Made by a program: the position numbers and the translations under genes
In this document: positions 30,125 through 53,226 of the stretch, one piece after another
Numbering within the stretch: position 1 is the first letter of the stretch
Layout of the letters: each line of letters begins with the position of its first letter
Notes under the pieces: generated by a model
What the model was told of the DNA's origin: nothing
Seen by the model: the letters and a program-made list of their open reading frames with translations, nothing else
The model's database searches: none
Assembly: GCA_963662695.2 (NCBI GenBank)
Contig: CAXXDC010000002.1
Coordinates: 650,022-714,021 of the forward strand
Direction: 5' to 3'
DNA: 64,000 nucleotides
From: Clostridia bacterium
GTDB taxonomy: Bacteria; Bacillota; Clostridia; SK-Y3

Positions 30125-30150
30125 GCAAAAAATAGCCACGAAGGCTATTT
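30125..30150 (-). terminator. Intrinsic terminator-like hairpin between the two VirB4 pieces
   Basis: Minus-strand AAATAGCC-TTCGT-GGCTATTT followed by TTTTG. It sits in the 91-nt gap between the stop at 30196 and the start at 30104. Confidence 0.5.
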
Positions 30151-30804: not shown

Positions 30805-31169
30805 AGAGATTTCTCCAAATCGTCTGACTCATCATCATTCGTCTGCATACATATATAGTATTCAATGGTATCAAATCTTTTCATATACTTTTCTACTTGC
30901 TCATCTGTTAGAGATATGCTTTTTTCACCGCCATCATCACCAAGGATAATAAAGTTTCCTGCAATAATATCACCATTGTCCAGTTTTCTATTACCATCAA
31001 GACCTATGAGCTTTCCTTCTCCATTACAAAACATAATGGTGTTTTTATCAAGTGGAACTAGCTCTATATTGCCACCTACTAGCCTTCTCAATTCTTGATA
31101 TTTGTTTTCAAACTCTATAACCTCTGGTTTTTCTCCAACTCGAACATGGATACCTCTTATTTTCTTCAT
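30801..31169 (-). CDS. DUF3846 domain protein
   Basis: IEFENKYQELRRLVGGNIELVPLDKNTIMFCNGEGKLIGLDGNRKL...IAGNFIILGDDG is the typical DUF3846 pattern found in conjugative elements. Confidence 0.65.
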   Translation of the reverse strand: MKKIRGIHVRVGEKPEVIEFENKYQELRRLVGGNIELVPLDKNTIMFCNGEGKLIGLDGNRKLDNGDIIAGNFIILGDDGGEKSISLTDEQVEKYMKRFDTIEYYICMQTNDDESDDLEKSL

Positions 31170-34481: not shown

Positions 34482-34869
34482 TCACGTATTCATAATTTGC
34501 ATTTCCATTCTTTGATGACTTAATCCTGTTTTCTTTGATGGAAAAACTTTACCCGTAGATCTAAATCCACATTTTCTATAAAACTCAACAGCTTTAATTC
34601 TTGAATTTAGAAAAATTTTAGTACAAGTTTCTTCTCTTGATTTTTTAATTATTCTTTTTATAATTTTCTTCCAATTCCACATCCTCATATCTGCCCTCAA
34701 CAACCATCTGTGATATTTGTGCATTATTATTAAGCATAGTTAATCTTCCATAACCTATAACAACCTTGCAATTATCTATACAAGTTAAACGAATACTCGA
34801 ACTTTCGTGATAATCAATAACAATACTTTTGTCATAGCCAAATTGTTTAAAGAAAATATTATATCTCAA
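34482..34869 (-). pseudogene. GNAT-family N-acetyltransferase, inactivated by frameshifts
   Basis: Two overlapping track ORFs carry the N- and C-terminal halves. The acetyl-CoA motif GCGIGRKL is readable only in the third frame (about 34661-34690). No ATG start follows the GGAGGTG RBS (an ATA codon sits in its place, about 34943). Confidence 0.7.
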
Positions 34870-34979: not shown

Positions 34980-35603
34980 CTAAAATTTATCTCCTGTTCC
35001 CCATTCACCATCACCATAATCAGAACCTTCACTACCACCTTCTAATCCACTATCTGGTCTTTTAGTAGGTGGTTTAGCAAATGGATTCTCACTATCAGGC
35101 ACTAAGTTACTTCCATTGTCACCCTCTGTATCAGTAGGTGCATCTGGCGTAACTACTACTGGATTTTCTACTGGTTCTTGTGGTTCAACTGTTGGTGACT
35201 CTTCTCTAACTGGCGGTTCGGGATTAATCTCTGTATCTCCCTCTTGAACTTCATGTTCACCATCAGGCAATTTATCTTTCTCTTCTACAGGATGTTCCTC
35301 TACATTTTCTTGTTTTGGCAACTCAGGTGCAGGTGGTACAACTGGCTTTTCTACTTCCGTTGGTACTTCTTGCTCTTTTTCTTTTTGGACTGGTTCATCC
35401 TCTTTAATGCCAGCTACTTCAACAGTAGGTTTATCATCTTCTATATCTTGTGGTTTTACTTCTTTTTTAATATTTTCATCTGCAATAGTATCTTGTTCAG
35501 CAGGTACTAGTGTCTTTTCATATACATTATATCCAATGCCTATGGCTACTAAAATCAATACACATACAATTGTGATTTGTTTTATTCTGTTGTTTTTCAT
35601 CAA
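34980..35603 (-). CDS. Membrane-anchored Pro/Glu-rich low-complexity protein
   Basis: An N-terminal TM helix (ITIVCVLILVAIGIGY) is followed by an extended P/E/V-rich region. Confidence 0.5.
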   Translation of the reverse strand: MMKNNRIKQITIVCVLILVAIGIGYNVYEKTLVPAEQDTIADENIKKEVKPQDIEDDKPTVEVAGIKEDEPVQKEKEQEVPTEVEKPVVPPAPELPKQENVEEHPVEEKDKLPDGEHEVQEGDTEINPEPPVREESPTVEPQEPVENPVVVTPDAPTDTEGDNGSNLVPDSENPFAKPPTKRPDSGLEGGSEGSDYGDGEWGTGDKF

Positions 35604-35722: not shown

Positions 35723-36250
35723 TCAGAATTTTGGTATGAATTTAGCCTCTACTTTAAGAAGAATGACCATATCAGGTAAGTCATCCCAACCAAAGCTAAG
35801 TGGAACTCTTAATGTAATGGTTACATTAGCCTTGAACCTATCATCTTTATCCCCTCTAAATTTAGCATTAATAACATCTACATTCAGATCATATAAAACG
35901 TATTCCATTTCACCATTTATATATTTTACATATCTGCTACCATCTCTTTGTAAGCCTAAATGCTCTGATAAATCTTGATAGGCTGTTCCTTTGTCGATAT
36001 CTGTTTCCCAACTGTTCCCATCTAAAATATATCCACCTGAATAGCCTTGTCTAAGTCCATTGTAATTGTTATCCCAGTTATTAGTTACAACCGATATCAC
36101 CGATGATTGCACACCATCACGCACGCCCTTTGCAATTATTTTTAACCTTATATATTCTGATATTGCAGTAAATATTAACATGAAGATGAGTACAAAAACA
36201 CATGCCAAAATAACTGCATTTCCTTCTTTATTTTTTATCAATTCTTCCAA
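35723..36250 (-). CDS. TadE/pseudopilin-like protein
   Basis: N-terminus KNKEGNAVILACVFVLIFMLIFTAI is a short charged leader plus a hydrophobic helix, as in Tad minor pilins. The gene lies in the Tad cluster. Confidence 0.4.
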   Translation of the reverse strand: MEELIKNKEGNAVILACVFVLIFMLIFTAISEYIRLKIIAKGVRDGVQSSVISVVTNNWDNNYNGLRQGYSGGYILDGNSWETDIDKGTAYQDLSEHLGLQRDGSRYVKYINGEMEYVLYDLNVDVINAKFRGDKDDRFKANVTITLRVPLSFGWDDLPDMVILLKVEAKFIPKF

Positions 36251-36639
36251 TAGACTTCACTCCTTCCTGTGGCTTTTGATGTTAAGGTTATGGGAAATGA
36301 GCCAAAAGAAAAGAAACCTATATCGGTTTCTAGAGTAAGCACTAAGCTAAATTCGCTATTTAGTTGTATTTTGCCTGTGGTTGACCAATTTACATCTGGT
36401 TCAAGTCCTGTATTAACTTTTAATTCATTAATCCTATTTCTCGTGGCACTTCCGATATATCCTTCTATTTCTGCACACCGTACCGCTTCGTCTGCAAATG
36501 TATCAAGCTTTGCCTTCATTATAAATACTGGTAGAACATTTGTGGCAAGTGCAAGCATTAATACGACTACAAAGACGATTATTACTACGTCTATGTAGCC
36601 TTCACCTCGTTTGTCTTTTAAAATATTCAGTTTCATCAC
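36238..36639 (-). CDS. DUF4320-family (Tad-associated pseudopilin-like) protein
   Basis: DKRGEGYIDVVIIVFVVVLMLALATNVLPVFIMKAKLDTFADEAVRCAEIEGYIG matches the DUF4320 pattern. Confidence 0.55.
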   Translation of the reverse strand: MMKLNILKDKRGEGYIDVVIIVFVVVLMLALATNVLPVFIMKAKLDTFADEAVRCAEIEGYIGSATRNRINELKVNTGLEPDVNWSTTGKIQLNSEFSLVLTLETDIGFFSFGSFPITLTSKATGRSEVYWKN

Positions 36640-36642
36640 CTC

Positions 36643-37515
36643 CTAGAATAGTTTCCCCATACTTTCGACAATCTGTAATATCATCACCACAAGATACATC
36701 ATAATAAAGCACCCAAGCATAAGCATTGAATACCTTCGTATTTTGGCAGGACGCTTCATCACCTCTGCTTTTAGTCTTTGAAGTTCTAATTGTTTGAAAT
36801 CATGGGATAGCATCTGAAAGTAGACCACGTTGTTATCACCACGAATGACACCAATAAGACCTCTAATCACATCTGATAGCATACTACTTCCTATCCTTGT
36901 TTCAAATCGTGTTAACGCTGATTCTACATTACCTGTTTTCATATCCGCTACAGTAATTTCTAATTCTCTTTTAAATATCCCACTTGCGTTATTCTTATAG
37001 GTATCTAAAATAGATAGCACATCTCTACTTGCTTGTAATTCTTGTGTAAGGGTTGATACAAAACGTGGTAATTCATATTCTATGACATTTTTGCTTTTTT
37101 TTAATATTTCATCTGCACTACCTATTTCTTTAAAGTATATTAATATGCTAACAACTAATATTACTGGTGATAAGATTGGAAATATGTATAAAGCAGGTAC
37201 AACACATAATAGTGTCATACCTGCTTTCACATAGGCTCTTGCTATAAAGGTTTCTGGTATTAATGGGATATTGGCTGATTTTAAAGCCATGGACAGCTTT
37301 CTTCTTTTGTATCGTCCCAACTTTATGTATTTCCCTATTTTCTCCGACAATTCAAGTATTATTACGTCTAGTAACTTAGGGTTTTTATTTCCCTTTTTAC
37401 TCACTGCTATATAGGTCTTATTAGCTCTTTTTGATGGTATTTTGAATATATCTAAAAGTATTAGAAAAAGCCCTGTACCAAAGCACAGAGCGAATAATGT
37501 TAATATTTTAATCAA
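36643..37515 (-). CDS. TadC-like type II secretion system F-domain membrane protein
   Basis: T2SSF-type segment YELPRFVSTLTQELQASRDVLSILDTY...VADMKTGNVESALTRFETRIGSSMLSDVIRGL, flanked by TM helices. Confidence 0.7.
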   Translation of the reverse strand: MIKILTLFALCFGTGLFLILLDIFKIPSKRANKTYIAVSKKGNKNPKLLDVIILELSEKIGKYIKLGRYKRRKLSMALKSANIPLIPETFIARAYVKAGMTLLCVVPALYIFPILSPVILVVSILIYFKEIGSADEILKKSKNVIEYELPRFVSTLTQELQASRDVLSILDTYKNNASGIFKRELEITVADMKTGNVESALTRFETRIGSSMLSDVIRGLIGVIRGDNNVVYFQMLSHDFKQLELQRLKAEVMKRPAKIRRYSMLMLGCFIMMYLVVMILQIVESMGKLF

Positions 37516-37535
37516 GTTTTTTCCTCCTTGTTGAA

Positions 37536-38543
37536 CTAGCTTTTTTTAGATTGCTTAATGAGCTGCTCTGCATTGTCTATTGATTCTATAAAATGCTTCT
37601 CCACTGTTGTTAATTCGGTTTTTATTTTTTCTTTGTACTTTTCGTATTCAAGGTTGGCTTTTTCTTTTGCTTGATTATGACTTATTGTACCTGCATGATT
37701 TAATATTTCATTATCAGTCATTTTTAAGAAATCATCTAATTTTGTTAACCAATCTTTCATATACATTGGTTTCTTCCTAATAGCTTGCAATTCGGCAAAT
37801 TCTAAGTATGCTGTTACTATTCTGTTTAATATATTTATTTCGTCTTCTTCTAGATAGTTTTTAGCAATTATTGCATCTGCTTTTTTCGGCTTATCTCCTG
37901 TAAATGCTGTCATTCCCATATGTGGTAATCCTGCATTTGCTCTATTGTATATGATTTCTGCTGCTGTATGACCATGTGCTGCCCAGTGCATTTTATTTTG
38001 AATTATTTTGAAAAAGATTATTGAACTTTCTACCTTTGGATCATAATCAATACTAGTAGCATATATATCTAATACTTTTCTCCAAAATACCTTTTCAGAG
38101 GAACGAATATCTCTGATTCTTTCTAATAGCTCGTCAAAGTAATTGCCACCACCAGCTTTTTTTAGAAGTTCGTCATTCATTGTAAATCCTTTTATGATGT
38201 ATTCTCTTAGTCTTTCTGTAGCCCAAATACGAAATTGTGTTCCTCTGTGAGATTTTACTCTGTAGCCTACTGATATTATTACATCAAGATTATAATGCTT
38301 TACTTCATAGGTTTTTCCGTCTGTAGCAGTTGTTGCAAAATTTGCAACAACTAAATTTTTCTCAAGTTCTCCTTCTTTAAAGATATTATTTATATGTCTT
38401 GAAATAACTGATTTATCTCGTTGAAATAACTCACACATTTGTGCTTGTGACAACCATACTGTGTCTTGTTCCATTGTTACCTCAATCTTTGTCTGCCCAT
38501 CTCCTGTTTGATATATAATCATTTCTGATTTATTTATATCCAT
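37536..38543 (-). CDS. RhuM-family (virulence protein RhuM) protein
   Basis: IIYQTGDGQTKIEVTMEQDTVWLSQAQMCELFQRDKSVISRHINNIFKEGEL...VISVGYRVKSHRGTQFRIWATERLREYIIKGF is a near-canonical RhuM family N-terminus. Confidence 0.85.
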   Translation of the reverse strand: MDINKSEMIIYQTGDGQTKIEVTMEQDTVWLSQAQMCELFQRDKSVISRHINNIFKEGELEKNLVVANFATTATDGKTYEVKHYNLDVIISVGYRVKSHRGTQFRIWATERLREYIIKGFTMNDELLKKAGGGNYFDELLERIRDIRSSEKVFWRKVLDIYATSIDYDPKVESSIIFFKIIQNKMHWAAHGHTAAEIIYNRANAGLPHMGMTAFTGDKPKKADAIIAKNYLEEDEINILNRIVTAYLEFAELQAIRKKPMYMKDWLTKLDDFLKMTDNEILNHAGTISHNQAKEKANLEYEKYKEKIKTELTTVEKHFIESIDNAEQLIKQSKKS

Positions 38544-38628
38544 AAGTAATCACACCATTCTTAAAGGTATTTGTTGTCTTTATTATAATAATATTTTCTA
38601 GTTTTTTCAAACGTTTGAACATTTTTAT

Positions 38629-39567
38629 TTATCTCTTGTACTCAACTGGCTTGCTATGTTTTACTACTCCTGCTATTGATATAAATAATACTACTGTGCA
38701 TATGGCAAGTACACCTTTTCCTATTGGCGTGAACATCAGTGATTTATACCATTCTTTATTTAGAAAATATATGAGTGGTATATTACCGATTAATAGTGAT
38801 GCCATCATCATAAATTCTTTTACTGGCTCATATAGCATGTTGTCTAGTTCGCCTGATACGATTCGCATATCTGATAATTTTGTGACAATTGGGGTTAGTG
38901 TGCTTTTTAGGTTTTTATCTTCTTGGCAGTCTATTATTGCATCTACCCATTGCCTGAATACGTCACTGTCTATCTTGCTTTTTAGCTTTTCTAGTGCCAT
39001 TTTTATATTTGCATTAATAAGCTTACTGTCCATTAGAAAAGATTTGAATACCTCGTCTACTGGTGGGTTGATATAGTCTATATTTTCTTCTATTGCTGTG
39101 ATAATGCTATCACTTCTCATATATGATGTTGTTATTACTGATAATGCAGTTTCTAATTCTCCATTGAGTTCTTTTTTCCATTTTGTTGCTACCAGTTTTA
39201 CATACCAAAAAGGGGTAAGTGCAAAGCCTATTCCAAGCACAGGAGTTAATACGATGTTCTTTATAAGTATGGCAATGAACATGCCAATTATTGATAATAT
39301 AATGGATGTTATCAGTATTATAATGAAGCGTTCTTCTTTTCCTGTCATCTTTAGGATTTCTTTTGTTTCTGTTATTAAATGCTTTATCCCTTTTGTTTTT
39401 TTCTTTTTCGTTACTGATAAGACCTTTTGCCTCATATTTGCTTTCTTGTTAGGTTTTATTCTTTTGATATAATCAATGATTTCTATTGGTGATATTTTTA
39501 GTAGATTAAAAAATCCCAATATCATTAGTATTAAAGCTATAAATAACATGCTACTCACCTTTTGCAC
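38629..39567 (-). CDS. TadB-like type II secretion system F-domain membrane protein
   Basis: TM helices flank a cytoplasmic T2SSF-like domain (ELETALSVITTSYMRSDSIITAIEENIDYI...). It is adjacent to the CpaF-like ATPase. Confidence 0.65.
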   Translation of the reverse strand: MQKVSSMLFIALILMILGFFNLLKISPIEIIDYIKRIKPNKKANMRQKVLSVTKKKKTKGIKHLITETKEILKMTGKEERFIIILITSIILSIIGMFIAILIKNIVLTPVLGIGFALTPFWYVKLVATKWKKELNGELETALSVITTSYMRSDSIITAIEENIDYINPPVDEVFKSFLMDSKLINANIKMALEKLKSKIDSDVFRQWVDAIIDCQEDKNLKSTLTPIVTKLSDMRIVSGELDNMLYEPVKEFMMMASLLIGNIPLIYFLNKEWYKSLMFTPIGKGVLAICTVVLFISIAGVVKHSKPVEYKR

Positions 39568-40882
39568 CTCCTAGAAAGATCCGCAATTCGGTTTTTGACA
39601 TACCATTCTCAAGGAGTCTTTTTTGCATTGTTACTGAAATATCGTTGACCTTTTCATAATGTCCTATTATTTTTTGTTTGCCTTTTACAAATATATTGTC
39701 AGTAACATTATAACGATACAAAGTGCGTATCTCTCTTATACTATCTGATTTGATTTCACACTCTGTAATTTCCATGATATGTCTTGTGTTATCTTCTAAC
39801 TTCTTACAAAATGCAATAATGGGAAAGGCTTCTGTTACAAGGTTATATAGTGTTTTTTCATCCATATCATATCGTTGTTTACATAGTGTTACCATACGAT
39901 AATAAGTGGCTATGCAGGAGTTAGCATGGATAGTCGTTGAAACCCCATGTCCACTCCTTGCTGATTCTTGGGCATAGAAGGCTTCATCACTTTTCATCTC
40001 GGCTACACATATATAGTCTGGGTTGACTGTTAATGCTGTTTCTAGAAGTTTTGCCATTGTTATGGACTGCTTTGGATCATCACTATATCTTGTTACGGTA
40101 TGAATTACATTGTTAATGACCTCACCCTTATCATTTTTCTTGACCAAATTGAACTCACGAGTCCCGTTTTCTATTGTAAATAGTCTTTTATCGTTGGGTA
40201 ATGTGGATAGGATATAACTCATTAATGTTGTTTTTCCACTGGATGTTGCTCCTGTAAAACAGATGCTTTCACCATATTTATGAGTAAGTGTTAAAAAACT
40301 AAGCATTTCTTCGCTTGCAGTGCCACTTTTTATAAAATCATTTTTTGTTAGCTTTCTTGGGTTAACGATACGTATGGACACGGCTACCCCTATTTCTTTA
40401 TCTACAACTCCTTTTGCAATAGCTGTTATACGAATTTTATCACTTAAATGACCTACTACAATTGGCTGTGAACTATCTAATATCATACCACTTTGATGAA
40501 GCAATCTTCTTATTACATCCATTGCATGGGTAGGTGAATTGAAATGCTCTTTTGCTGGTAATATTTCACCGCTTGAATAGGTGACTTTTATGTCGTTATA
40601 GCTGTTTATATTTATTTCTTCTATGTCGTTTCTATTCAGATATTCTGTTAGAAAACTATATTCTGCCATTTCTATATAGAGTCTTTCTGTAAGCCTTTCT
40701 TCTGTATATCCTTCTACCTTTAAGTTGTTGTCTTCTATATATTTCTTTATGAAGGCTTTCATCTGTGTTTTACTGTTTTGTATATCTTCAGCTATCAGTA
40801 TGAAATATTTACTGGATATATGCTCTTGAACTCTTCGTAAAACTTCTGTAAAATCCATGTATTTATGCATCTTTATCACCAT
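39551..40882 (-). CDS. CpaF/TadA-family secretion ATPase (T2SS/T4P/VirB11 superfamily)
   Basis: Walker A GATSSGKTT, Walker B/Asp box (DYICVAEMKSDEA) and His box (GHGVSTTIHANS). Confidence 0.88.
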   Translation of the reverse strand: MVIKMHKYMDFTEVLRRVQEHISSKYFILIAEDIQNSKTQMKAFIKKYIEDNNLKVEGYTEERLTERLYIEMAEYSFLTEYLNRNDIEEININSYNDIKVTYSSGEILPAKEHFNSPTHAMDVIRRLLHQSGMILDSSQPIVVGHLSDKIRITAIAKGVVDKEIGVAVSIRIVNPRKLTKNDFIKSGTASEEMLSFLTLTHKYGESICFTGATSSGKTTLMSYILSTLPNDKRLFTIENGTREFNLVKKNDKGEVINNVIHTVTRYSDDPKQSITMAKLLETALTVNPDYICVAEMKSDEAFYAQESARSGHGVSTTIHANSCIATYYRMVTLCKQRYDMDEKTLYNLVTEAFPIIAFCKKLEDNTRHIMEITECEIKSDSIREIRTLYRYNVTDNIFVKGKQKIIGHYEKVNDISVTMQKRLLENGMSKTELRIFLGGAKGE

Positions 40883-41669
40883 CTTTCTTTTTTAATTTTG
40901 GGAATGCAAATTTCTTTTTGCTTTCTTTTTTTCTTATTTCTCCAGTAATTTTTTCTGCTAGATTTAATAGTGTATTATTGTATCCTTGGCTTTGTTTATC
41001 TTGTAATTCCTCAAAAAGAAGACCTTCTCTATACTGATTTTGAATTTCCTTAGTATAGGGAAGATCGTATGATATTTCGCCATAATGGTTGGTTATGATG
41101 GCTTTGGGTTCATGTTCTTCAATTTTTGAGAGGATTTTCATATGGATATTCAGGTTATATGATTTTTCTATCATTAACGGCAATATGGATTTAAAATAGC
41201 TTATACTTTTTAAATCGCTTCCACATGTCCTAATGGTTTCATCTGCTAGTTTAATCGCTGTTTTTGATAGAATATCGCAATGTATATATGATGATGTGTC
41301 TAATATTACATATTCTACAATATGGGATAGGTTAATAATTAGTTCCCTTGCTCTGTCTTCCTCATAATCTGCATAAGTTTTATGATTCTCACCTTGTGCA
41401 TATCCTATGAATGCTAGATTTTTATTACTTTTTATTGTTATTAGGTTTTTTAGAATATCTTCTTGTGTCAATGTAGGCACTTCTAATACTTTTCCAAGTG
41501 ATTTGTCTTTTTCAGAGCTGTAGGGGAGTATCGTTCCAAGTGGTGGAGCTACCATATCACAGTGTACTACTATTGTGTTATGCGTTATTGAAAGCTGATT
41601 AGCCAATTTGGTGCTAAATAATGTTTTGCCACTGTTTGGACTGCCCCATATGGTTATTATCTTACTCAT
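40863..41669 (-). CDS. ParA/MinD-like P-loop ATPase (CpaE/TadZ-like)
   Basis: N-terminal P-loop IWGSPNSGKTLFS. 268 aa, between the CpaB-like and CpaF-like genes. Confidence 0.6.
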   Translation of the reverse strand: MSKIITIWGSPNSGKTLFSTKLANQLSITHNTIVVHCDMVAPPLGTILPYSSEKDKSLGKVLEVPTLTQEDILKNLITIKSNKNLAFIGYAQGENHKTYADYEEDRARELIINLSHIVEYVILDTSSYIHCDILSKTAIKLADETIRTCGSDLKSISYFKSILPLMIEKSYNLNIHMKILSKIEEHEPKAIITNHYGEISYDLPYTKEIQNQYREGLLFEELQDKQSQGYNNTLLNLAEKITGEIRKKESKKKFAFPKLKKKDGDKDA

Positions 41670-42427
41670 TACTTATCACCCCTATTTCTGTTAATTGCTT
41701 CTTCTGTTGTTCCTATGAATATTTTTTCTTGCTGTTCTAAAAAAGCCTTTGTGTTGTTTTCGTTTCCACGATACACAAAGGCTAGATGTATTTTACCATT
41801 GGCTTCTAAGTCAGCTAATTGTATGGCTTGTTGTTCTGAAACTTTTAATGTTACTGTTGCTGGCAACTCTTTTTCCTCTCCCTTATTATTATCTGTTTCT
41901 TCTGTATCATACCCTGTTCCCAGTGTTACAGCTAACACCTCAACGTATTTTAATTCTTTTGGAGATAGGGTTTCTTTTTTGTCACCGTAATCTGCTACAT
42001 ATACTGATACGATATCACCTTTTTTAAGTTTGCCTGATAGTCCACTTGCAAAATTCCTAATGGTTACTGATATGGCTCTTTTATTTCCATCAAATTCTTC
42101 AAGATAACCGTATTCAGCTAACGAGGTATCGGATAGTTTTGGCTGTAGAATGTAGTCACCTTTGAGAATGTCAGTAGTTGCGTACTTGCCTATGACACTT
42201 TCTTTGTTTTTGATAACTTCATTTGGTAGGTTGTAGCCACCTACTTCAATGGTTTGTATCATATTTGATGTGATTTCGTCACCTACATTAATATCTTTTG
42301 TAATTTTTACTATTTTTACTTTGTTTGCTACTGCTTTATTAAACAGTGGTGTTAAACCAAAGCAAATGAAAAGAGATAGCACTATGGATGCTATCCCTAG
42401 GGTGGTTCTGTTTTTTAGTTTTTTCAT
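41669..42427 (-). CDS. CpaB/RcpC-like Flp pilus assembly protein (SAF domain)
   Basis: N-terminal TM helix, then VKIVKITKDINVGDEITSNMIQTIEVGGYNLP (SAF-like) and a C-terminal beta-rich domain. Confidence 0.7.
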   Translation of the reverse strand: MKKLKNRTTLGIASIVLSLFICFGLTPLFNKAVANKVKIVKITKDINVGDEITSNMIQTIEVGGYNLPNEVIKNKESVIGKYATTDILKGDYILQPKLSDTSLAEYGYLEEFDGNKRAISVTIRNFASGLSGKLKKGDIVSVYVADYGDKKETLSPKELKYVEVLAVTLGTGYDTEETDNNKGEEKELPATVTLKVSEQQAIQLADLEANGKIHLAFVYRGNENNTKAFLEQQEKIFIGTTEEAINRNRGDK

Positions 42428-42686
42428 GTGGTTTGTCCTCCCATTAAATTTCTCAATGTAGGCTAGATATATCTCTTACACTATACTCTCTCCTAACAAA
42501 TCAAAATCATATTATTATGAAATATTTTATACAATTTTTTGATTCTCTTAGATTCTCTTTTTATCATTTGTCGTTTTACTTTACTGCGGATAGGATAATA
42601 AAAGGCACTGACATACTGCAGTATTTTAAGCTTTTATATCCATTGCTTATATCTTATCTCCCACAAGATATTGGTTTTCTGACAAG

Positions 42687-43385
42687 TTATCTTTCTTGAT
42701 CAAAATCTGAAAGTTCGTCTAAAAGTTCTGTTTTGATTTGTTCAAAGTCATAGGGCATATCTACTTCGCTTTTCGCAGTGAAGTCATCATTAATAAAGAT
42801 ACTCAGGTCAAAATCTTTTGTTGGTATAGAAACGTTAATAGGAAAAAGTGGTGTTGCTGAAAGCCCGTTGAACATTGCAGCTAATACTTTAAATTCCCCA
42901 CCTTTATCAGACACAAGTAACTTATATCCTTCTACAAGGAATGCTGGTTCTATTCCATTTTCAGTATGAACCTCATAATAAATTTCACAAATCACTTCAT
43001 AAATATTGTTGTCTAACAATTCAATCGAAAAAGTGCGAACTTCACTATCAGCCATCGTCCAAGAACCGCTTATACTCTGCTTTATATTTGCTATTTCTCG
43101 TTTATCTTCCAAAAACTGCTTAAAGATAGTCGCTCTTTCATCAATCAAATAATCTTGATAAGTGTTTTCCGTGGCAAAATCAGATAGTGTTGTATTGATA
43201 AAGTCTAAGGTTTTTGTTCTGATATCTATATCAACATCGCTTATATCGCTATCATTGTTCATCGGATTATCAACATCGCTATCAAATTCACTTTCAAGCT
43301 CACCATTACGTTCTATTGAAAAGAAAACTACTGCAAATATAAAGAGCAAAAATATGCCCATAAACATTAAACTCTTCTTTTTCAT
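42687..43385 (-). CDS. Secreted protein, paralogous to the N-terminal half of the next gene
   Basis: It has a signal/TM N-terminus. KTLDFINTTLSDFATENTYQDYLIDERATIFKQFLEDKREIANIKQ aligns by eye with TLDFISTTLSDFAMETTYQDNLIDNSSTVFKQFLDDKRKITNLKQ of the 402-aa protein. Confidence 0.55.
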   Translation of the reverse strand: MKKKSLMFMGIFLLFIFAVVFFSIERNGELESEFDSDVDNPMNNDSDISDVDIDIRTKTLDFINTTLSDFATENTYQDYLIDERATIFKQFLEDKREIANIKQSISGSWTMADSEVRTFSIELLDNNIYEVICEIYYEVHTENGIEPAFLVEGYKLLVSDKGGEFKVLAAMFNGLSATPLFPINVSIPTKDFDLSIFINDDFTAKSEVDMPYDFEQIKTELLDELSDFDQER

Positions 43386-43525
43386 TCATTATTCCTCCAT
43401 TTATTTATGGTAGTGTAAAGTATAATATAGGAATTATATGCTAACTTAAGCATTAACAGTAGATTAGGCTACCTTTAGTGTATACCCCCAACACGTATTC
43501 ATTCCTTCCTCATAACTATAAAAAA

Positions 43526-43605
43526 TTGTGCTTATAAATGATTGTCAAGCCTGGGCGTAAGCCCATTCATTTAAGGCTTTACAATCATTTATAAAGCATA
43601 ATACA
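43526..43605 (-). terminator. Long compound hairpin followed by a T-run (probable terminator)
   Basis: 14-bp perfect arms TTATAAATGATTGT / ACAATCATTTATAA (43532-43545 / 43581-43594) enclose an inner TGGGC-GTAA-GCCCA hairpin. On the minus strand it is followed by ACAATTTTTTAT. Confidence 0.5.
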
Positions 43606-43678
43606 ATTATAAGGAGTAAGAATCTTGCTCAATTATGTCAACTGTTTTTTATATCTTACTTCATACTACCTTAATTTA

Positions 43679-44887
43679 TTAATCGTAGTAGCCACGCACC
43701 TCAACTTTAGTGTGAGATGAACCAGAATACCTTAGCGAATAATTTCCTTTATAGGGACTTGAATGAGCTGTCACTATAGGGTCACCTCCAGCAGTATGCA
43801 CTATAACAGAATGATATGGGGAGCTACTACTTCCTAAGAATATAATGCTACCAACATCTAAATCTTGAAAGCGAGATACAACTCTTGCTTTTGGACCTAA
43901 TGTATTATTTGATCTCAATAAGAAATTTTTAAGATTTTCTGCTTTTGTCCAGCTTGTACTTCTATTTGAAGAATCTCTATAGTACCAATAAGTATCTCCC
44001 CAAATTCCACTACCAGAATATTCATTAAATGCTGAACCACCAGCACGCAGAATTTGACTAGCATAGTTTGTGCAATCTCCACCACTGCCACTAAAATCTG
44101 CATAATTAGGGTTAAAACTATCATGCCAATTGTTCTGATATGTTGTCATACTGCTTTTCTCTGAAGATGAGAAAAAATTCCAAGTAATTGATTTTTGAGA
44201 AACACTATCAGTAGTTACTGTGCCTTCTTCCAAAAAGTCATCTTCACTTTCTTTTGAACTCTTCATATTTTGTTCGTTTACCATTTGGTCATGTGCAGTT
44301 ATTAAGCGTTTCTCTATCTCATCAATATCGTAATCTGTCTTATTTTTTTTTGCAGAAGTGTCATTAAGAAAAATACTTAAATCAAAATCTTGCTCTTGTG
44401 TAACAATATTATAAGGATAAATTGTTCCGGATGATAGTCCATTGGACATTGCAGCTAATACTTTTAATTTCCCATCCTCAAAGAAAACATTTAATTTATA
44501 TCCTTCTACAATATGGAATAAATCCTCTTGCCCTTCAACAATAAAATCATATTTGATTTTACAAGTAACCTCATAAATATTATCATTTAGTCTTTCAGCA
44601 GAAAATTCAGTGACTTCTTCGGACATTAACTTCCAAGCACCACTTAATTCCTGTTTTAGGTTGGTTATTTTTCGCTTGTCATCTAAAAACTGTTTAAAAA
44701 CAGTTGAGCTATTATCAATCAAGTTGTCTTGATAAGTGGTTTCCATAGCAAAATCAGATAATGTAGTACTAATAAAGTCTAAGGTTTCTGTTTTTAAATT
44801 CACATCACTATTTGCACTTACAGGAAATACCATCATTGTCATAAGTATTACGGTACTTAAAACGGTTGAAATTATTTTACCTCTCAT
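43679..44887 (-). CDS. Secreted protein with C-terminal putative amidase domain (Amidase_6-like)
   Basis: Signal peptide. C-terminal GGDCTNYASQILRAGG...YWYY...W...HSVIVH pattern of the 'putative amidase domain' family. Confidence 0.55.
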   Translation of the reverse strand: MRGKIISTVLSTVILMTMMVFPVSANSDVNLKTETLDFISTTLSDFAMETTYQDNLIDNSSTVFKQFLDDKRKITNLKQELSGAWKLMSEEVTEFSAERLNDNIYEVTCKIKYDFIVEGQEDLFHIVEGYKLNVFFEDGKLKVLAAMSNGLSSGTIYPYNIVTQEQDFDLSIFLNDTSAKKNKTDYDIDEIEKRLITAHDQMVNEQNMKSSKESEDDFLEEGTVTTDSVSQKSITWNFFSSSEKSSMTTYQNNWHDSFNPNYADFSGSGGDCTNYASQILRAGGSAFNEYSGSGIWGDTYWYYRDSSNRSTSWTKAENLKNFLLRSNNTLGPKARVVSRFQDLDVGSIIFLGSSSSPYHSVIVHTAGGDPIVTAHSSPYKGNYSLRYSGSSHTKVEVRGYYD

Positions 44888-45074
44888 TTTATATTCCTCC
44901 TATAGATTAATTAATTCACTTAACTCTATCAAGTTAAATACTTTGTCCTTGAACTAACAATAACGCCTAGTCTATTTTTACTGTTTTGTTTTACAACCTT
45001 ATATGATTATATTTTTCACAAAACATCTTATCATATAAAGTTACTAATCAAACATATTTAAACCTCTTTGTAAA

Positions 45075-45491
45075 TTAGTACACTTTAGTCTTACTAACAT
45101 AACTTGTGTTTTCTACCATATCTCCATCCACATATGCATATCCATATGAAATCATCCTATACTTATTTCCACTCGCTACATACCACTTACCGCCTGCTCC
45201 ACATCTAGTTCCGTCTCTTGTCTCAGACCAGCTCTTAATCGTCTTCCATTTACCATCTTTATATTGTTGTAATTTAGCTGTGACTTTTACACTATCTACA
45301 TTTCTAGCAACAAGATAGCTATCGACACTTGCTTGTCCATCACTAGAGATGTCAAATGCGTTTTCGAATAATGTAATATTGGTAAATCTTGTTTGATAAT
45401 TTGTTGGTTCTATAATAGATGCATAAGTGGTTGCATTAAATAAAGTGAGTATCAAGCATATGCATATGAAAAATATATATTTCCTTCTCAC
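45075..45491 (-). CDS. Small secreted protein of unknown function
   Basis: Signal peptide YIFFICICLILTLFNATTYA. The likely GTG start at 45491 follows GGAGGTG. It lies downstream of the ECF sigma/anti-sigma pair. Confidence 0.5.
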   Translation of the reverse strand: MRRKYIFFICICLILTLFNATTYASIIEPTNYQTRFTNITLFENAFDISSDGQASVDSYLVARNVDSVKVTAKLQQYKDGKWKTIKSWSETRDGTRCGAGGKWYVASGNKYRMISYGYAYVDGDMVENTSYVSKTKVY

Positions 45492-45561
45492 GTTAATCAC
45501 CTCCCTTCATACTATATAACAATTTAGGGAGGCGATTCGTTACACTTTTTCATAAAATATT

Positions 45562-46296
45562 TTAATTTTTTTCCAAACTTTCTATAACTTCTATTAATTT
45601 TACACTTGTTATATTTGATGTAAAGCTAAAGCTACACTCTTCATTATGCCATATGATTACTGTTTGTTTGTCCTTCTCAATAAGCAACCCATTGTTTCCA
45701 TTAATAGTAATCTCTTTGCTTTTCGCCTCTTCAGTATCAGCCTGATAATTAGTACCATTAAGGGATTGTATCATCAGTATAAATTCATCATCTTTTATAA
45801 ATTCTAAGATTTTTTTGTTATTTAGTATTTCAGCACTTTCTATCCTAAACCCTTCTGGTAAATAACTAGGATAGTAATAATTTCCCCAACTGCTTGGTAT
45901 AATGCTTTCCCTATCTTCATCTATTTGTATACTTGTGTACTTTTCATGCTTCACCATAAAAAAGTTAAATAGTTTTATTCTAAAAGCTTCTACAGTACAT
46001 GTTAATATTGTTCCCGTTGTCAAAACGACAATTATAAATATCGCTACTCTCTTACCTATTTTTTGTGTCTGGTTTATTGCTTTTTTAAGCCTACTCTTTC
46101 TTCTATGTTTTCTTGAAAATTCATCAAACCACTCATCCATGCTAGATGGTATTTCAATCTGATTGATTTCATCTTTTTTTTCATCTAATTCTCTAACAAT
46201 ATTCTCCGTATGACAATACCCTACATAGCGATAATATGATTCCATCATCCTATCTATTTCACCAATATTTTCATTAGATTTTCTCATTAAGTACAA
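45562..46296 (-). CDS. Anti-sigma factor (single-pass membrane, DUF4367-like extracellular domain)
   Basis: It overlaps the sigma gene stop by 23 nt. It has a cytoplasmic N-domain, a TM helix (VAIFIIVVLTTGTILTCTV) and an extracytoplasmic C-domain. Confidence 0.6.
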   Translation of the reverse strand: MYLMRKSNENIGEIDRMMESYYRYVGYCHTENIVRELDEKKDEINQIEIPSSMDEWFDEFSRKHRRKSRLKKAINQTQKIGKRVAIFIIVVLTTGTILTCTVEAFRIKLFNFFMVKHEKYTSIQIDEDRESIIPSSWGNYYYPSYLPEGFRIESAEILNNKKILEFIKDDEFILMIQSLNGTNYQADTEEAKSKEITINGNNGLLIEKDKQTVIIWHNEECSFSFTSNITSVKLIEVIESLEKN

Positions 46297-46837
46297 CTCC
46301 TCCCTCTAACAAAAGCTTTTTCAAACTTTGTCTTGCTCTACACAATTTTACTCTAACATTGCCTTCTGTTAAATCAATTAAATTTGCAATTTCCGCATTT
46401 GTACATTCATGAAAATATTTTAGTGTTAAAATGTCCGCATAACTACTATCTAGTCTAGCAAGTAATTTGGCTATATCTTCTGATTTTTCTAGTCTTATCA
46501 TATGTAACTCGGGAGTAATATCATCATCTGGTAATATTTCTACTATATTATCTATCGATATAGTTTTTCTGTTTTTTCTTTGATTGTATATATTGATGGA
46601 AATGTTTCTAACTATTATAACAAGAAAGGTCTTCGTTTTGTTACACTTAACCTCTGAGATTTTTTTGAGTTGTGATGAAATTTTTATAATTGCATTTTGC
46701 ACTACATCTTCTGCCTCGTGATAATCATTTAATATCCTATTAGCTTCATAAAACAAGTCTTTACGGTAAAGCAAGTATAATTGTTCTAATTTATTACGGA
46801 TATTTTCATCTTCTATAACCATTAAAAATGCCAGCAT
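46274..46837 (-). CDS. ECF-type RNA polymerase sigma-70 factor
   Basis: Region 2 (DYHEAEDVVQNAIIKI) and region 4 HTH (CTNAEIANLIDLTEGNVRVKLCRARQSLKKLL). Confidence 0.85.
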   Translation of the reverse strand: MLAFLMVIEDENIRNKLEQLYLLYRKDLFYEANRILNDYHEAEDVVQNAIIKISSQLKKISEVKCNKTKTFLVIIVRNISINIYNQRKNRKTISIDNIVEILPDDDITPELHMIRLEKSEDIAKLLARLDSSYADILTLKYFHECTNAEIANLIDLTEGNVRVKLCRARQSLKKLLLEGGVVLNEKI

Positions 46838-46891
46838 AATTTCGTCTCTCCTTAATCATTCGTTCCTTATATATTTTATATCAGTAATACT

Positions 46892-47317
46892 TCACACGTA
46901 CATAAATATATTAATCAAACTTATGAACAGGTACCCTGTACCTAAATAAGGCACTAACGCAAACTTACCACAATAATCCATACCATTGTATCTAAAGTAT
47001 AACATATTTGCAAATATTGCGAAACCCAGTCCTAAACTACTTCCTACTAGTCCTCCAGCTAATCCTAAATAAAACGAACAAGCCCCCACCAACTTTGTAT
47101 CCCCACCACCTATTGACCCATTTTTCATTAGTGCCACTACCAAAAATGGAAGTGGCACTAACACTAATCCTAGTATTGATGGAACAACATTTATATTTAT
47201 TAACCCTAACAAAATAATCATAACATGCACCTTATCTGGTATAATCCTTGTCTTGATATCACAATAGCTTGCATAGATAAGTACTAAAACAAACAAGATA
47301 TCTTTTATCGCCATCAT
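46892..47317 (-). CDS. A24-family prepilin peptidase (TadV/CpaA-like)
   Basis: The two catalytic Asp contexts are YCDIKTRIIPD and GGGDTKL. 141 aa and polytopic. Confidence 0.8.
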   Translation of the reverse strand: MMAIKDILFVLVLIYASYCDIKTRIIPDKVHVMIILLGLININVVPSILGLVLVPLPFLVVALMKNGSIGGGDTKLVGACSFYLGLAGGLVGSSLGLGFAIFANMLYFRYNGMDYCGKFALVPYLGTGYLFISLINIFMYV

Positions 47318-47323
47318 TCTTCA

Positions 47324-47590
47324 TCACCTCACCAAATAGGCATTGGCTCTCCTGCCACCATCTTGATCATATCTACTATGTATATAAATATCACCATTCG
47401 CTTCTAATCTCCGCAAATGCTTACTTACTGTTGTTCTATGTATACCTAATATCCTTCCAAGCTTTCTATGGGATATCTCTACCTTTCCATTTGCATCTGC
47501 CAATTCATTGAGTAGCATATACATTAACTTACCTGATACTGTTGCTTTCAGATTGCCTGATACTCTATATTTTTCTATGTTCCCTGCCAT
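47324..47590 (-). CDS. Winged-helix DNA-binding protein
   Basis: SHRKLGRILGIHRTTVSKHLRRLEANGDI is an HTH. 88 aa. Confidence 0.55.
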   Translation of the reverse strand: MAGNIEKYRVSGNLKATVSGKLMYMLLNELADANGKVEISHRKLGRILGIHRTTVSKHLRRLEANGDIYIHSRYDQDGGRRANAYLVR

Positions 47591-47912
47591 GCTCTACCGC
47601 CCTTTCTATCTTATATTTATACCTATATTTCTTCTGTCTTAATTGATACTTTAATAAAAATCCTATCTGGTCTACTACGGATATATTAGATATGTCTTTT
47701 GTCAGCATTATTACACTTCCTGATATGGTACTGAGGATGAATATTATACTTATTACTGTGTTTTTAGTTATGAAAAATAACAGGATATCAATAACTCCTG
47801 CTATAACTGTTACTACAATGATTTTTATGACTTCTTCTTTTCCAAATCCATTGAATAGTTCACTTCTTAGTTTTAATCCTTGTGGGATATAGAGTGGTTT
47901 TTCAGTTTTCAT
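47565..47912 (-). CDS. PrgI-family (VirB3-like) T4SS membrane protein
   Basis: PLYIPQGLKLRSELFNGFGKEEVIKIIVVTVIAGVIDILLFF resembles the PrgI family N-terminus plus two TM helices. It lies next to a VirB6-like gene. Confidence 0.5.
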   Translation of the reverse strand: MKTEKPLYIPQGLKLRSELFNGFGKEEVIKIIVVTVIAGVIDILLFFITKNTVISIIFILSTISGSVIMLTKDISNISVVDQIGFLLKYQLRQKKYRYKYKIERAVEHGREHRKI

Positions 47913-47921
47913 TGCATCACC

Positions 47922-48131
47922 TTACCTGTAATAAACAAATATTATATCTTTTATGGTGTAGCATGATTCGGCTAGGATATAAAATATAATGATGTTCCTT
48001 ATTTTTTTCTTATATGCCTTTTCATCTTCTTCGTTTGCTCCCATGAGTACAAAGCAATAGACTATTCTTAATACAACACCAACTCTTATGACTATGAGAA
48101 AAGCATCGGATAGCTCTTTTATTAAATTCAC
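47922..48131 (-). CDS. Small membrane protein, unknown function
   Basis: 69 aa with two hydrophobic helices, co-oriented in the T4SS block. Confidence 0.35.
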   Translation of the reverse strand: MNLIKELSDAFLIVIRVGVVLRIVYCFVLMGANEEDEKAYKKKIRNIIIFYILAESCYTIKDIIFVYYR

Positions 48132-48168
48132 TTATGCACCCCTTTCATTTTTTGTATTTTGCTTGATG

Positions 48169-49005
48169 TTACTTTTTAAATATCGCTTTACTCATTTGAT
48201 ATATCCTTGCTGTGGAGTAAACTTTATTCATCATGCCACCATTTCCACTGCCTGATATGATTAAGAATTCTTGTAGGAATTTTGGTGTTTTTATCGCTAA
48301 TATCATTGCAGCTACTCCCCAAAATGCATGGGCATTAAGCATTAGCCCAACACCCATTTTTGCTAGTACTATTTGTATAAGTACGCCTAGTGTACTTTGG
48401 AAGAATTTTTGCAGATAGCTTTTAAAGACTCCGTTGTCTCTGTCCATTAATCCTACACAAGCTAGTGGTAGTCCTATTCTAAGAATCATTATTTCTAGTC
48501 CTCGTGTTAGAAATTGTATGTATAGTAAAAAGAAACAGATAAAAAAGATGAGTGATACTATCCCTGTAAATATTCCTGCTGTTGCTATTCCTGATACTAT
48601 GGCTGAAAAGTCTGTTGCCATATCGCCTGATATTATATTGATTAATTCGTTTGACATGTCTTGTATGATGGTAGCCAGCCATCCATACATCGTAGGAAAA
48701 CTTATTGCTATTGCAAGTGCTTTTAGAAATCCTACTAACATAATGGCTGGCTCGGTATCACTGTCTCCATCTTGCCATAGGATGTATCTATCAAATCCTT
48801 TTTTAAGAAATTTTAATATGATAAGAGAGATACCAAAGCCAAAGAATATGTCAAAGATACTTTCTATGGCATTTATACCTAGTAAGGTATCCATATATTT
48901 TTCTGAGTAGAGTACCATTGGTACAAGCCCTTCTAAAAGAGTGTCTACGTATACTAGACACCCTGATAGTATGGCTGTGATAAGGAGCATGATTACAATC
49001 TCCAC
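48169..49005 (-). CDS. VirB6/TrbL-like polytopic T4SS membrane protein
   Basis: 278 aa with about 6 TM helices, between the VirB2-like/pilin-like and VirB3-like genes. Confidence 0.55.
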   Translation of the reverse strand: MEIVIMLLITAILSGCLVYVDTLLEGLVPMVLYSEKYMDTLLGINAIESIFDIFFGFGISLIILKFLKKGFDRYILWQDGDSDTEPAIMLVGFLKALAIAISFPTMYGWLATIIQDMSNELINIISGDMATDFSAIVSGIATAGIFTGIVSLIFFICFFLLYIQFLTRGLEIMILRIGLPLACVGLMDRDNGVFKSYLQKFFQSTLGVLIQIVLAKMGVGLMLNAHAFWGVAAMILAIKTPKFLQEFLIISGSGNGGMMNKVYSTARIYQMSKAIFKK

Positions 49006-49033
49006 GTTACCACCTCCTTAATTTTCTCATGCT

Positions 49034-49252
49034 TTAGCCATTGTAATTAAACATATCAATAATTCGATCTTCTAATTCTGGAAGTACCACGTCGCCGATT
49101 AAGGCATAGAGTCCTGCTAAAATCAACGCTCCAAGTACTACACTGATTAAAATAGTAATGGCTGTATTTAATGCCCCTTCTCCTCTTTTATCTGTCATTA
49201 CTCCTATAAATCTAGTTCTTACGTTAATGGCTATTTTGTTTAATCTCTTCAT
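49034..49252 (-). CDS. Flp-type prepilin-like small protein
   Basis: MTDKRGEG-ALNTAITILISVVLGALILAGLYALIG: a charged leader ending in GEG, followed by a hydrophobic helix. It shares the DKRGEG motif with the DUF4320 protein. Confidence 0.5.
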   Translation of the reverse strand: MKRLNKIAINVRTRFIGVMTDKRGEGALNTAITILISVVLGALILAGLYALIGDVVLPELEDRIIDMFNYNG

Positions 49253-49320: not shown

Positions 49321-49683
49321 TTATGAGTAGTACCCAATAATCAGATTAATGATGGCACTGCCTAGTACTGCGCCTATAACGGATACAATGGCTGTTGTGA
49401 TACGATTGTTCCAACGTTTTTGGTCTTGTTCGTCTGCTCCGCTTCTTCTTATAAAGAAGTAGATGATTAAGAGTCCTCCTACAATTGGTGCAAGTACCAT
49501 GAGCCATGTTGTTACGTCGTTTAATAATGCTTCTGTTCCTGTTACTAATTTGCTGTTTTGTACACCTCCTGTTGTAGGAGCTGCTATTACAATCATTCCA
49601 TTAAAATACAGTACCTGTAATGCTACAAGTACTGTTAAGACTTTTGATTTTATTTTCTTTGCTGTACTACTAATGTTCATCAC
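49321..49683 (-). CDS. VirB2/TrbC-like T4SS membrane protein
   Basis: Signal peptide plus two TM helices separated by a charged loop (RRSGADEQDQKRWNNR). 120 aa, directly downstream of the T4CP gene. Confidence 0.4.
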   Translation of the reverse strand: MMNISSTAKKIKSKVLTVLVALQVLYFNGMIVIAAPTTGGVQNSKLVTGTEALLNDVTTWLMVLAPIVGGLLIIYFFIRRSGADEQDQKRWNNRITTAIVSVIGAVLGSAIINLIIGYYS

Positions 49684-52930: not shown

Positions 52931-53226
52931 ATCTCATGTATCTCCTTTTTAAAGCCTGATAAATCAATAACTTTTAGTTTTCCTTGATGTGCCAAAATAG
53001 TAAGTTGGTTAATGTTATTTCCAATCTTGGATAGATGATGTATGATGTCTTTTAATCCAATAAATATAAATACGGTATCATTTGTTGCTGATAATATAAG
53101 ATATTGACTTATACTCATGTTTGCCTTTTTGGCTCTTGATTCAATTTTTTTATATTCTGTTTCTGTTAATCTAGCATTAACTCTTTTTGACCTTGTACTT
53201 ATGTCTTCCAGCTCCTTTCTTGGCAT
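52879..53226 (-). CDS. MobC-family relaxosome accessory protein
   Basis: RVNARLTETEYKKIESRAKKANMSISQYL (RHH-like) and IGNNINQLTILAHQG motifs are typical of MobC. Confidence 0.8.
   Translation of the reverse strand: MPRKELEDISTRSKRVNARLTETEYKKIESRAKKANMSISQYLILSATNDTVFIFIGLKDIIHHLSKIGNNINQLTILAHQGKLKVIDLSGFKKEIHEIWLSLNKSTKKTRRIQD

Follow-up and report, generated by a model that had tools for sequence, protein, structure and literature searches.

The transfer operon of a conjugative element in a low-GC Clostridia genome carries, interleaved with the genes of its type IV secretion system (T4SS), a set of genes whose sequences support a Tad-type (type IVc-like) pilus assembly kit. The operon lies in a stretch of 64,000 nucleotides (the window) from the Clostridia bacterium assembly GCA_963662695.2, at positions 650,022 to 714,021 of contig CAXXDC010000002.1; the genome comprises 2 contigs (3.26 Mb, 33.5% GC), and the window is on an 874-kb contig. 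The best explanation of the window is that it holds the transfer region of an integrated conjugative element whose Gram-positive-type T4SS operon has permanently incorporated a monoderm Tad cassette. The cassette probably specifies a pilus that forms or stabilises mating pairs, which would make it the monoderm counterpart of the thin pilus of the IncI plasmids (R64/TP114). Filament production, the position at which the pilins would be cut and the role in mating are what we infer from the sequence.

From 53.2 kb down to 28.3 kb of the window every substantial open reading frame (ORF) is on the minus strand, and the genes are given here in that direction. The DNA-processing genes MobC/NikA (52879-53226) and a MobA/VirD2 relaxase (51962-52930; PF03432, 126 bits) are followed by the VirD4 coupling protein (49696-51693; PF02534, 205.9 bits) and a VirB2-like protein of 120 amino acids (aa) matching the Pfam family T4SS_pilin (49321-49683). 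Next stands the gene for a Flp-like prepilin of 72 aa, the probable major pilin (DUF6133; 49034-49252; PF19629, 88.3 bits), and after it come the VirB6-like TrbL_4 (48169-49005; PF19597, 381 bits), p69 (47922-48131; a weak T4SS_pilin match), a VirB3-like protein called from its size (47565-47912) and a helix-turn-helix regulator (47324-47590). The assembly genes begin with the TadV/CpaA-like A24 prepilin peptidase (46892-47317) and, beyond a block of cargo, continue with a CpaB/RcpC-like protein containing SAF and RcpC domains (41669-42427), a MinD/ParA-type P-loop ATPase of 268 aa in the TadZ/CpaE position (40863-41669), a CpaF/TadA-type secretion ATPase of 443 aa (39551-40882) and a polytopic TadB-like platform protein of 312 aa (38629-39567). 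On the far side of a RhuM-family gene follow a TadC-like platform protein of 290 aa (36643-37515), a DUF4320 minor-pilin-like protein of 133 aa (36238-36639) and a second minor-pilin-like protein of 175 aa, which belongs to no family and is called from its leader and position (35723-36250). A Tad-associated secreted protein of 671 aa (p671; 32404-34419) then leads into an NlpC/P60+CHAP wall hydrolase (31186-32391), a DUF3846 gene of the T4SS region (30801-31169) and VirB4.

This arrangement bears out the original prediction that Tad genes lie between VirD4/VirB2/VirB6/VirB3-like genes on one side and NlpC/P60 and VirB4 on the other: all of them are intact, co-directional ORFs at the positions it gave, and judged by profiles or folds the kit is complete. 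Its range for the module (35723-49252) does hold the Tad genes, but also RhuM, the sigma/Amidase_6 block, the helix-turn-helix gene, TrbL_4, p69 and the VirB3-like gene. To call the block nested was correct in that it sits inside the transfer operon, yet it understated the arrangement, for the gene of the pilin is found not with those for assembly but between the VirB2-like gene and the VirB6-like one. The gene list stands, with the addition of p671, which had been left outside and belongs to the cassette. Several Tad genes overlap one another (CpaB/ParA by 1 nucleotide (nt), ParA/CpaF by 20 nt, CpaF/TadB by 17 nt, DUF4320/175-aa by 13 nt), which fits translational coupling.

The assignments of the assembly machinery differ in strength. 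The peptidase, the CpaB-like protein and the CpaF-type ATPase, all three named as such in the original prediction, are strong calls, each scoring over a curated cut-off, and DUF4320 (PF14208, 105 bits) and DUF6133 are strong as well. The peptidase (PF01478, 42.6 bits against a cut-off of 26.5) is a minimal enzyme of 141 aa with no methyltransferase domain; the copy in the window has both catalytic aspartate motifs, YxDxK and GGGD, as do 90% or more of 33 homologues. The CpaB/RcpC-like protein matches PF16976 with 63.3 bits and TIGR03177 with 79.8 bits (cut-off 71). For the secretion ATPase (PF00437, 84.7 bits, cut-off 24.9) the best solved relative is Caulobacter CpaF (8rkd/9e24, 88 bits over residues 33-396), with archaeal GspE2 and VirB11 ranking behind it; against the models of PilB and GspE it scores only 37-38 bits. 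Its core scores highest among the NCBIfam models against VirB11 (TIGR02788, 132.6 bits), under that model's cut-off, and with 107 bits against a cut-off of 373 it is by score not a member of TIGR03819.

The remaining three proteins were harder to place. The MinD/ParA-like ATPase has no match in Pfam or NCBIfam, and the CpaE/ParA-like call made for it holds to the extent that a profile of 17 homologues reaches MinD (1g3q, E 1.5e-5), Soj and ParF; the receiver-like N-domain is missing, and 268 aa give no room for one. The TadC-like protein matches T2SSF over profile positions 1-123 of 125 but with 17.3 bits, below the threshold of 25.2, and weak T2SSF matches occur in 4 of its 19 homologues. The TadB-like protein has no sequence-family match in Pfam or NCBIfam, and none of its 19 homologues matches T2SSF. 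An identification from its sequence also failed by hhalign against TadC (E 0.02, probability 2%) and by a profile search of the PDB, which was run with the TadC-like paralogue; fold comparison alone helped. In an AlphaFold model built on the 19 homologues (predicted local distance difference test (pLDDT) 75.6), the cytoplasmic helical domain superposes on the N-domain of PilC (2whn; probability 0.96, TM-score 0.67, root-mean-square deviation 2.7 A) and also on EpsF. No ORF between 28 and 53 kb matched a secretin family such as that of RcpA, and neither TadD nor RcpB was found; such diderm parts would be expected to be absent from a monoderm.

The three small proteins share a putative processing signal. 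Homologues from all fetched loci were aligned (DUF6133, n=23; DUF4320, n=39; the 175-aa family, n=32), and in all three families the leader is short and basic and is followed by a glycine and a hydrophobic helix. In the DUF6133 family the leader is about 25 aa long, the conserved motif reads ..N/S-x-G-E-G-[FMY]-[VI]-D.., and most members carry an acidic residue at +5 when numbered from the first glycine. The DUF4320 family has a leader of about 10 aa with K at -3, R/K at -2, G at -1 (37/37), E at +1 (31/37) and D/E at +5 (36/37); the 175-aa family, also with a leader of about 10 aa, has G at -1 in 32/32, N/S at +1 and no acidic +5. In the window the leaders read KRG↓EGALNTAITIL (DUF6133), LKDKRG↓EGYID (DUF4320) and IKNKEG↓NAVIL (175-aa), the arrow marking the predicted cut, and subclades show the variants G↓NWLDE, G↓SAFIE, G↓AAYIE and G↓STYID. 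Classical type IV pilins are marked by an acidic residue at +5. Of the glycines, only the first one in GEG is invariant across all families and subclades, and because a cut there also places D/E at +5 in most family members, cleavage is likely after this residue (KRG↓EG...). The shared K-x-x-G/E-G leader and hydrophobic helix noted in the original prediction are therefore real and conserved in three families, but the cut after GEG was probably set two residues too far; we rejected it, the second G not being invariant.

With this cut the DUF6133 prepilin of the window loses a leader of about 24 aa and yields a predicted mature protein of about 48 aa, which is Flp-sized. The family is Flp-like by its size, long leader and helix-only architecture; the 72-aa prepilin did not match the Flp_Fap pilin family, DUF6133 being its single family match, and it has no Y at +6. 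Neither DUF4320 nor the 175-aa protein matched TadE/TadF. In relatives the 175-aa gene always follows DUF4320.

Is the cassette a part of the operon or a chance arrival? Species-representative genomes were scanned with the ATPase, giving 29 related loci (L003-L031; 48-86% identity) against which all window proteins were run by tblastn. The loci come from at least 7 clostridial lineages, including Vallitaleaceae, Tissierellales, Alkaliphilus, Maledivibacter, Fusibacter, Petrocella and Lachnospiraceae. T4SS markers are present in 26 of the 29, the remaining 3 being cut by contig ends, and wherever the flank suffices the order is kept: MobC, relaxase, VirD4, B2, DUF6133, TrbL_4, p69, B3, A24, CpaB, ParA, CpaF, TadB, TadC, DUF4320, 175-aa, p671, VirB4. 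NlpC, between p671 and VirB4, was detected in closer relatives only. In a second sample of 400 Clostridia species, TrbL_4 relatives were found in 16 genomes and compared with the ATPase matches. The interleaving recurs, over the extent of the flank that was fetched, in two loci (L044, L045) with an ATPase identity of only 40-44%, and one (L043) has a more distant Tad block downstream of VirB4. In pairwise comparisons the identity of CpaF is correlated with the identities of TrbL_4 (r 0.87), VirD4 (0.79), p671 (0.88) and TadB (0.94; Mantel p 0.001 each), which indicates inheritance as a unit.

The material inserted between these genes behaves differently. A block of 4.4 kb with sigma, anti-sigma and amidase genes lies between A24 and CpaB in the window and has a homologue in none of the 29 related loci, and RhuM occurs in a single one of them (L031); in compact relatives (L007, L016, L025, L028, L029) CpaB directly follows A24. 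Since the sigma block and RhuM are not conserved, it is this inserted material that varies and counts as cargo, while the core includes the Tad genes. The cassette did not arrive by a recent insertion. That it was inserted independently and is lacking in close relatives, the outcome that would have spoken against the original prediction, was rejected: the positions are the same in every related locus with enough flank, and the cassette has diverged together with the T4SS genes.

The operon holds the parts of a Gram-positive conjugative T4SS, namely VirB4, VirD4, a relaxase, MobC/NikA, the VirB6-like TrbL_4 and the NlpC/P60+CHAP hydrolase; no match to the VirB8 family was seen among the scanned ORFs of the window. 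The T4SS keeps its own VirB2-like gene beside the Tad kit, so that two filament-type systems coexist. VirB4 is encoded by two ORFs, of 202 aa (30196-30804) and 602 aa (28320-30128; PF19044, 42.1 bits; AAA_10, 31.6 bits). The same split into N- and C-terminal parts, with a gap of 50-160 nt, is seen in Tad-bearing relatives and in sister operons lacking Tad genes (L006, L016, L025, L036-L038), and because both kinds keep it we regard it as a conserved family trait and not a lesion.

The same cassette is found beside other T4SSs. On the plasmids pTPHSE1 (Terrisporobacter) and pCd5_2 (C. difficile) it stands next to a different, pLS20-type T4SS with a CD1115-type VirD4, a pLS20_p028-family protein, DUF5592 and a VirB4-like protein, to which pTPHSE1 adds a C40 hydrolase and a MobP2 relaxase. 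The pTPHSE1 cassette consists of two DUF6133 genes, A24, CpaB, an AAA ATPase, the secretion ATPase, two membrane proteins, DUF4320, a pilin-like protein and a p671 homologue; pCd5_2 has the same set, but no DUF6133 gene was detected on it. A third context is formed by loci (L032-L035, L056/57) whose ATPases are 48-53% identical and which lie not beside TrbL_4 but in elements with TrbL_5, DUF3852, YodL, SpoVG, DUF6550 and methylases; here VirD4 and VirB4-like genes are 15-35 kb off where the contig allows. In the ATPase tree the TrbL_4-interleaved and pLS20-type cassettes form one clade (SH-aLRT 95), the TrbL_5-type cassettes another (99), and most clusters that lack a T4SS fall on separate long branches.

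With DUF4320 as a marker, such systems were found in 39 of the 400 sampled Clostridia species (29 of 217 genera). Counting VirD4 or VirB4-like genes on the same contig within about 36 kb of the cassette, 24 of 46 DUF4320 places are linked to a T4SS. AAA_10 proved insensitive as a VirB4 detector, with many sub-threshold P-loop matches, and only same-contig matches near the cassette were counted. Among plasmids, 7 of the 8 in PLSDB that carry DUF4320 were typed 'non-mobilizable' by MOB-suite (the plasmids being NZ_CP154620.1, NZ_CP037841.1 and six more); yet on pTPHSE1 a MobP2 relaxase and VirD4 are annotated, and tblastn finds a VirB4-like region. Plasmid typing tools appear to be blind to the conjugation family that carries the cassette.

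The secreted p671 protein has a Sec-type signal peptide and no sequence relative in Pfam or the PDB. Its model (pLDDT 73.5) is a chain of mostly beta domains, one of them CARDB/immunoglobulin (Ig)-like (3idu; probability 1.0, TM-score 0.66), and its global fold has a loose likeness to the Ig domains of PrgB, to large adhesins and to an S-layer protein. A homologue accompanies the cassette in all three T4SS contexts (it was found in L001, L002, L032-35 and L056), and partial homologues also occur with some T4SS-less clusters. A reasonable reading would make p671 a candidate for an adhesin or a wall-spanning partner of the pilus.

How might such a cassette work? The minimal A24 peptidase would cut the three prepilin-like proteins after the invariant glycine (KRG↓EG...). 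The mature 48-aa DUF6133 protein would then serve as the Flp-like major subunit, with DUF4320 and the 175-aa protein as minor pilins that prime the filament. The CpaF-type ATPase, acting on a TadB/TadC-like platform, would polymerise and possibly retract it, while the MinD/ParA-like protein may position the machine and CpaB may guide it through the wall. The co-travelling p671, Ig-like and beta-rich, could act as an adhesin or wall partner. The filament would find and hold recipients, after which the wall hydrolase and the VirB4/VirB6/VirD4 channel would transfer the DNA.

Several observations weigh against a pilus dedicated to mating. Five sister TrbL_4 operons (L036-L039, L041) lack any Tad gene, B2 abutting TrbL_4 and B3 abutting VirB4. 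The existence of these operons makes the cassette an accessory to the channel and not a part of it. DUF6133 is absent from them too, and since it is missing whenever the cassette is missing, it belongs with the Tad kit. Pfam showed Peptidase_M23 and methylases in the Tad-less operons and no recognised alternative adhesin. In three of them (L036-L038) a Peptidase_M23 hydrolase replaces NlpC/P60 after VirB4, and MT-A70 methylases are also present; the type of wall hydrolase thus switches along with the presence or absence of the cassette. Roughly half of the DUF4320 places have no linkable T4SS, many of them on short contigs, and there are DUF4320-bearing Tad clusters without a T4SS, with ATPases 33-43% identical (G125, a complete genome, G123, G306, G265, G329 and the G117 group), so that the machine can serve other purposes. 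Because the ATPases of these clusters are distant, they point to a clostridial Tad family with one or more branches tied to conjugation. Furthermore, the window pilin (KRG↓EGALN) has N and not D/E at +5, as does that of the closest relative (L006), and the platform proteins and the TadZ-like protein are recognised weakly.

The T4SS-less relatives in Clostridia chromosomes would also suit an adaptive cargo, that is, a pilus for adhesion, aggregation or biofilm formation that benefits the host cell, hitch-hikes on the element and helps transfer at most indirectly. Tad pili are classically organelles of adhesion and colonisation (PMC13721041), and no other type IV filament systems are found on plasmids, or transferred, as often as Tad loci (PMC6668835). 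Such cargo is nevertheless unlikely here: real cargo in these operons is variable and sits in hot spots, whereas the Tad genes keep fixed, interleaved positions down to about 40% ATPase identity and co-diverge with the T4SS, and a pilin gene separated from its assembly genes and placed among VirB2/VirB6-like genes is unexpected for a self-contained island. Of the two roles put forward in the original prediction, a mating-pair device is thus better supported than a colonisation factor carried by the element. The location of the Tad genes amid channel genes, from the VirB3-like gene to VirB4 and beside a wall hydrolase, can also be read as that of a component of the DNA translocation machine, a short pseudopilus that spans or breaches the thick wall and forms or opens a conduit, with no long adhesive pilus. 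No wall-spanning structure is known in monoderm T4SSs (PMC12857230), and the NCBIfam preference of the ATPase core for VirB11 would be in keeping with this role. We regard it as unlikely, because sister operons with the same VirD4, B2, TrbL_4, B3 and VirB4 set do without the Tad genes, the cassette moves as a unit among three unrelated T4SS types, and the best structural relative of the ATPase over its full length is CpaF, not VirB11.

Some other nucleic-acid or competition function would have precedents in Tad systems reported to be co-opted for transformation (PMC6370729) and for prey killing (PMC12075869). It is very unlikely for this module, as the profile scans of the window recognised no ComEA/ComEC-like or toxin genes among the conserved neighbours, and nothing but DNA-processing and T4SS functions is consistently linked to it. 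To see in the cassette a relic that is decaying and no longer functions in this genome is scarcely credible: two insertions (RhuM and the sigma/amidase block) do interrupt it, and another genome has a degraded copy with in-frame stops, but all window ORFs are intact, the catalytic and processing motifs are kept, and the insertions fall between genes and not within them. We therefore favour a pilus for mating-pair formation or stabilisation, because the Tad genes hold fixed, interleaved and co-diverging positions while true cargo varies, accompany three T4SS types and are dispensable for the core channel.

The degraded copy just mentioned (G076:C54:427-3859) is a second copy of the TrbL_4 and CpaF region; its TrbL_4 homologue contains TAG six times in frame and its ATPase one TGA, so that either the copy has decayed or stop codons are used unusually at this locus. 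In the window, the cargo between A24 and CpaB (42687-46837; recognised by Pfam) comprises an ECF sigma factor with a DUF4367 anti-sigma factor, p141, an Amidase_6 protein and p232, the last being the paralogue, as a secreted pair, of the N-terminal half of the Amidase_6 protein. The close relatives L003, L006 and L031 hold other inserts of 3.7-6 kb at the same place, which makes the junction of A24 and CpaB an insertion hot spot. The second insertion, the RhuM-family gene between TadB and TadC (37536-38543; PF13310, 374 bits), has just upstream the best sigma-70-like promoter match of the region (38610-38582, minus strand, 11/12 positions). This site could also drive the TadC-like, DUF4320 and 175-aa genes; taken as a whole, the region has no more promoter-like sites than shuffling leads one to expect. 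Between the 175-aa gene and p671 lie p207 (34980-35603), a 207-aa protein of no family with an N-terminal transmembrane helix and a Pro/Glu-rich tail, whose slot gives tblastn matches in 11 of the 29 related loci and whose membership in the cassette is uncertain, and two overlapping short ORFs of uncertain nature (80 and 74 aa; 34482-34869) that look by eye like halves of a frameshifted small acetyltransferase; that slot has no tblastn counterpart in relatives.

The closest known parallels are the thin type IVb pilus of the IncI plasmids (R64 pil, TP114 PilS/PilV) and the pilus of PAPI-1, where a type IV filament kit likewise lies on a conjugative element beside a T4SS and is dispensable for the channel. 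These type IVb pili bind recipients and stabilise mating (PMC9045228; PMC3548315; PMC12282955). They are diderm systems that use an ATPase of the GspE/PilB type and a secretin; their pilins are large and globular, and a shufflon is often present. The present kit is monoderm: its ATPase is of the CpaF type, its predicted mature pilin is helical and 48 aa long, CpaB is accompanied by a MinD-like protein, and there is no secretin. Indeed, no secretin or recombinase-shufflon genes of the R64 type were found in the operon, the pilin is 72 aa long before processing, and, unlike the separate pil region of IncI, the pilus genes are interleaved with those of the T4SS. In its parts the kit resembles the classical Tad/Flp systems (Aggregatibacter tad, Caulobacter cpa, Bifidobacterium tad), in that the ATPase is of the CpaF/TadA kind, the A24 peptidase is minimal, CpaB/RcpC and a ParA/MinD-like protein are present, the pilin is a tiny helix preceded by a long leader, and to these are added two pseudopilins and two putative platform proteins of a single domain each. 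It differs from them in that other families stand in for Flp_Fap and TadE, DUF6133 as the pilin and DUF4320 and an unassigned one as the pseudopilins, that the cut motif is G↓EGxxD in place of G↓xxxxEY, that the platform proteins stay under Pfam thresholds, that the TadZ-like protein has no receiver-like domain, that a secretin, TadD and TadG are missing, and in its T4SS operon context.

Among mobile elements of Gram-positive bacteria, the Flp-pilus plasmids of Cutibacterium acnes (PMC5696575) also carry a Tad locus, in this case in Actinobacteria. The actinobacterial TIGR03819, below whose cut-off the window ATPase falls, is named by NCBI 'TadA family conjugal transfer-associated ATPase'. The operons of the pLS20/pXO2/pAW63 type encode a 'VirB11-like' ATPase, and the cassette-bearing Peptostreptococcaceae plasmids share with them pLS20_p028-family and CD1115-type VirD4 genes; Bacillus plasmids give distant ATPase matches of about 28% identity. 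Reviews describe Gram-positive conjugation as pilus-free and adhesin-based, with help from type IV pili only for the Gram-negative IncI and PAPI-1 (PMC12857230; PMC12282955). Two reviews of 2025, on T4SS nomenclature and on plasmid mobility, name such help for R64- and PAPI-1-type elements only, and the former regards the Patescibacteria as unique among monoderms in possibly making conjugative pili. In the full text of openly available papers, neither a Tad kit nor a type IV pilus kit was found to be described within a T4SS of monoderms, and DUF4320 and DUF6133 were not mentioned. The kind would thus be a known one, type IV filament-assisted conjugation; what appears new is that it is of the Tad type, in monoderms and integrated into the T4SS operon.

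It is quite possible, and we put it forward tentatively, that widespread conjugative elements of Clostridia, both integrated elements and plasmids including those of C. difficile and with at least three T4SS types, build a conjugative pilus of the Tad type that is dedicated to this task, its adhesin being the secreted Ig-like protein that travels with the cassette. No class of mating pilus would have been described for monoderms before; in evolution this one would be unrelated to VirB2 pili, and it would set recipient range and mating in liquid. The cassette itself is a compact monoderm Tad system with few parts and a distinct predicted processing motif (G↓EGxxD) for mechanistic work. Its carriers include gut and clinical lineages and C. 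difficile plasmids, and the blind spot in typing means that cassette plasmids are called non-mobilizable despite the relaxase and VirD4 present on at least pTPHSE1. If a Tad pilus is hard-wired into many Clostridia transfer operons, it would offer a testable answer to how anaerobe donors find and hold their recipients. Some Gram-positive conjugative elements would then use a retractile-type pilus to find or hold their partners, a textbook trait of Gram-negative plasmids.

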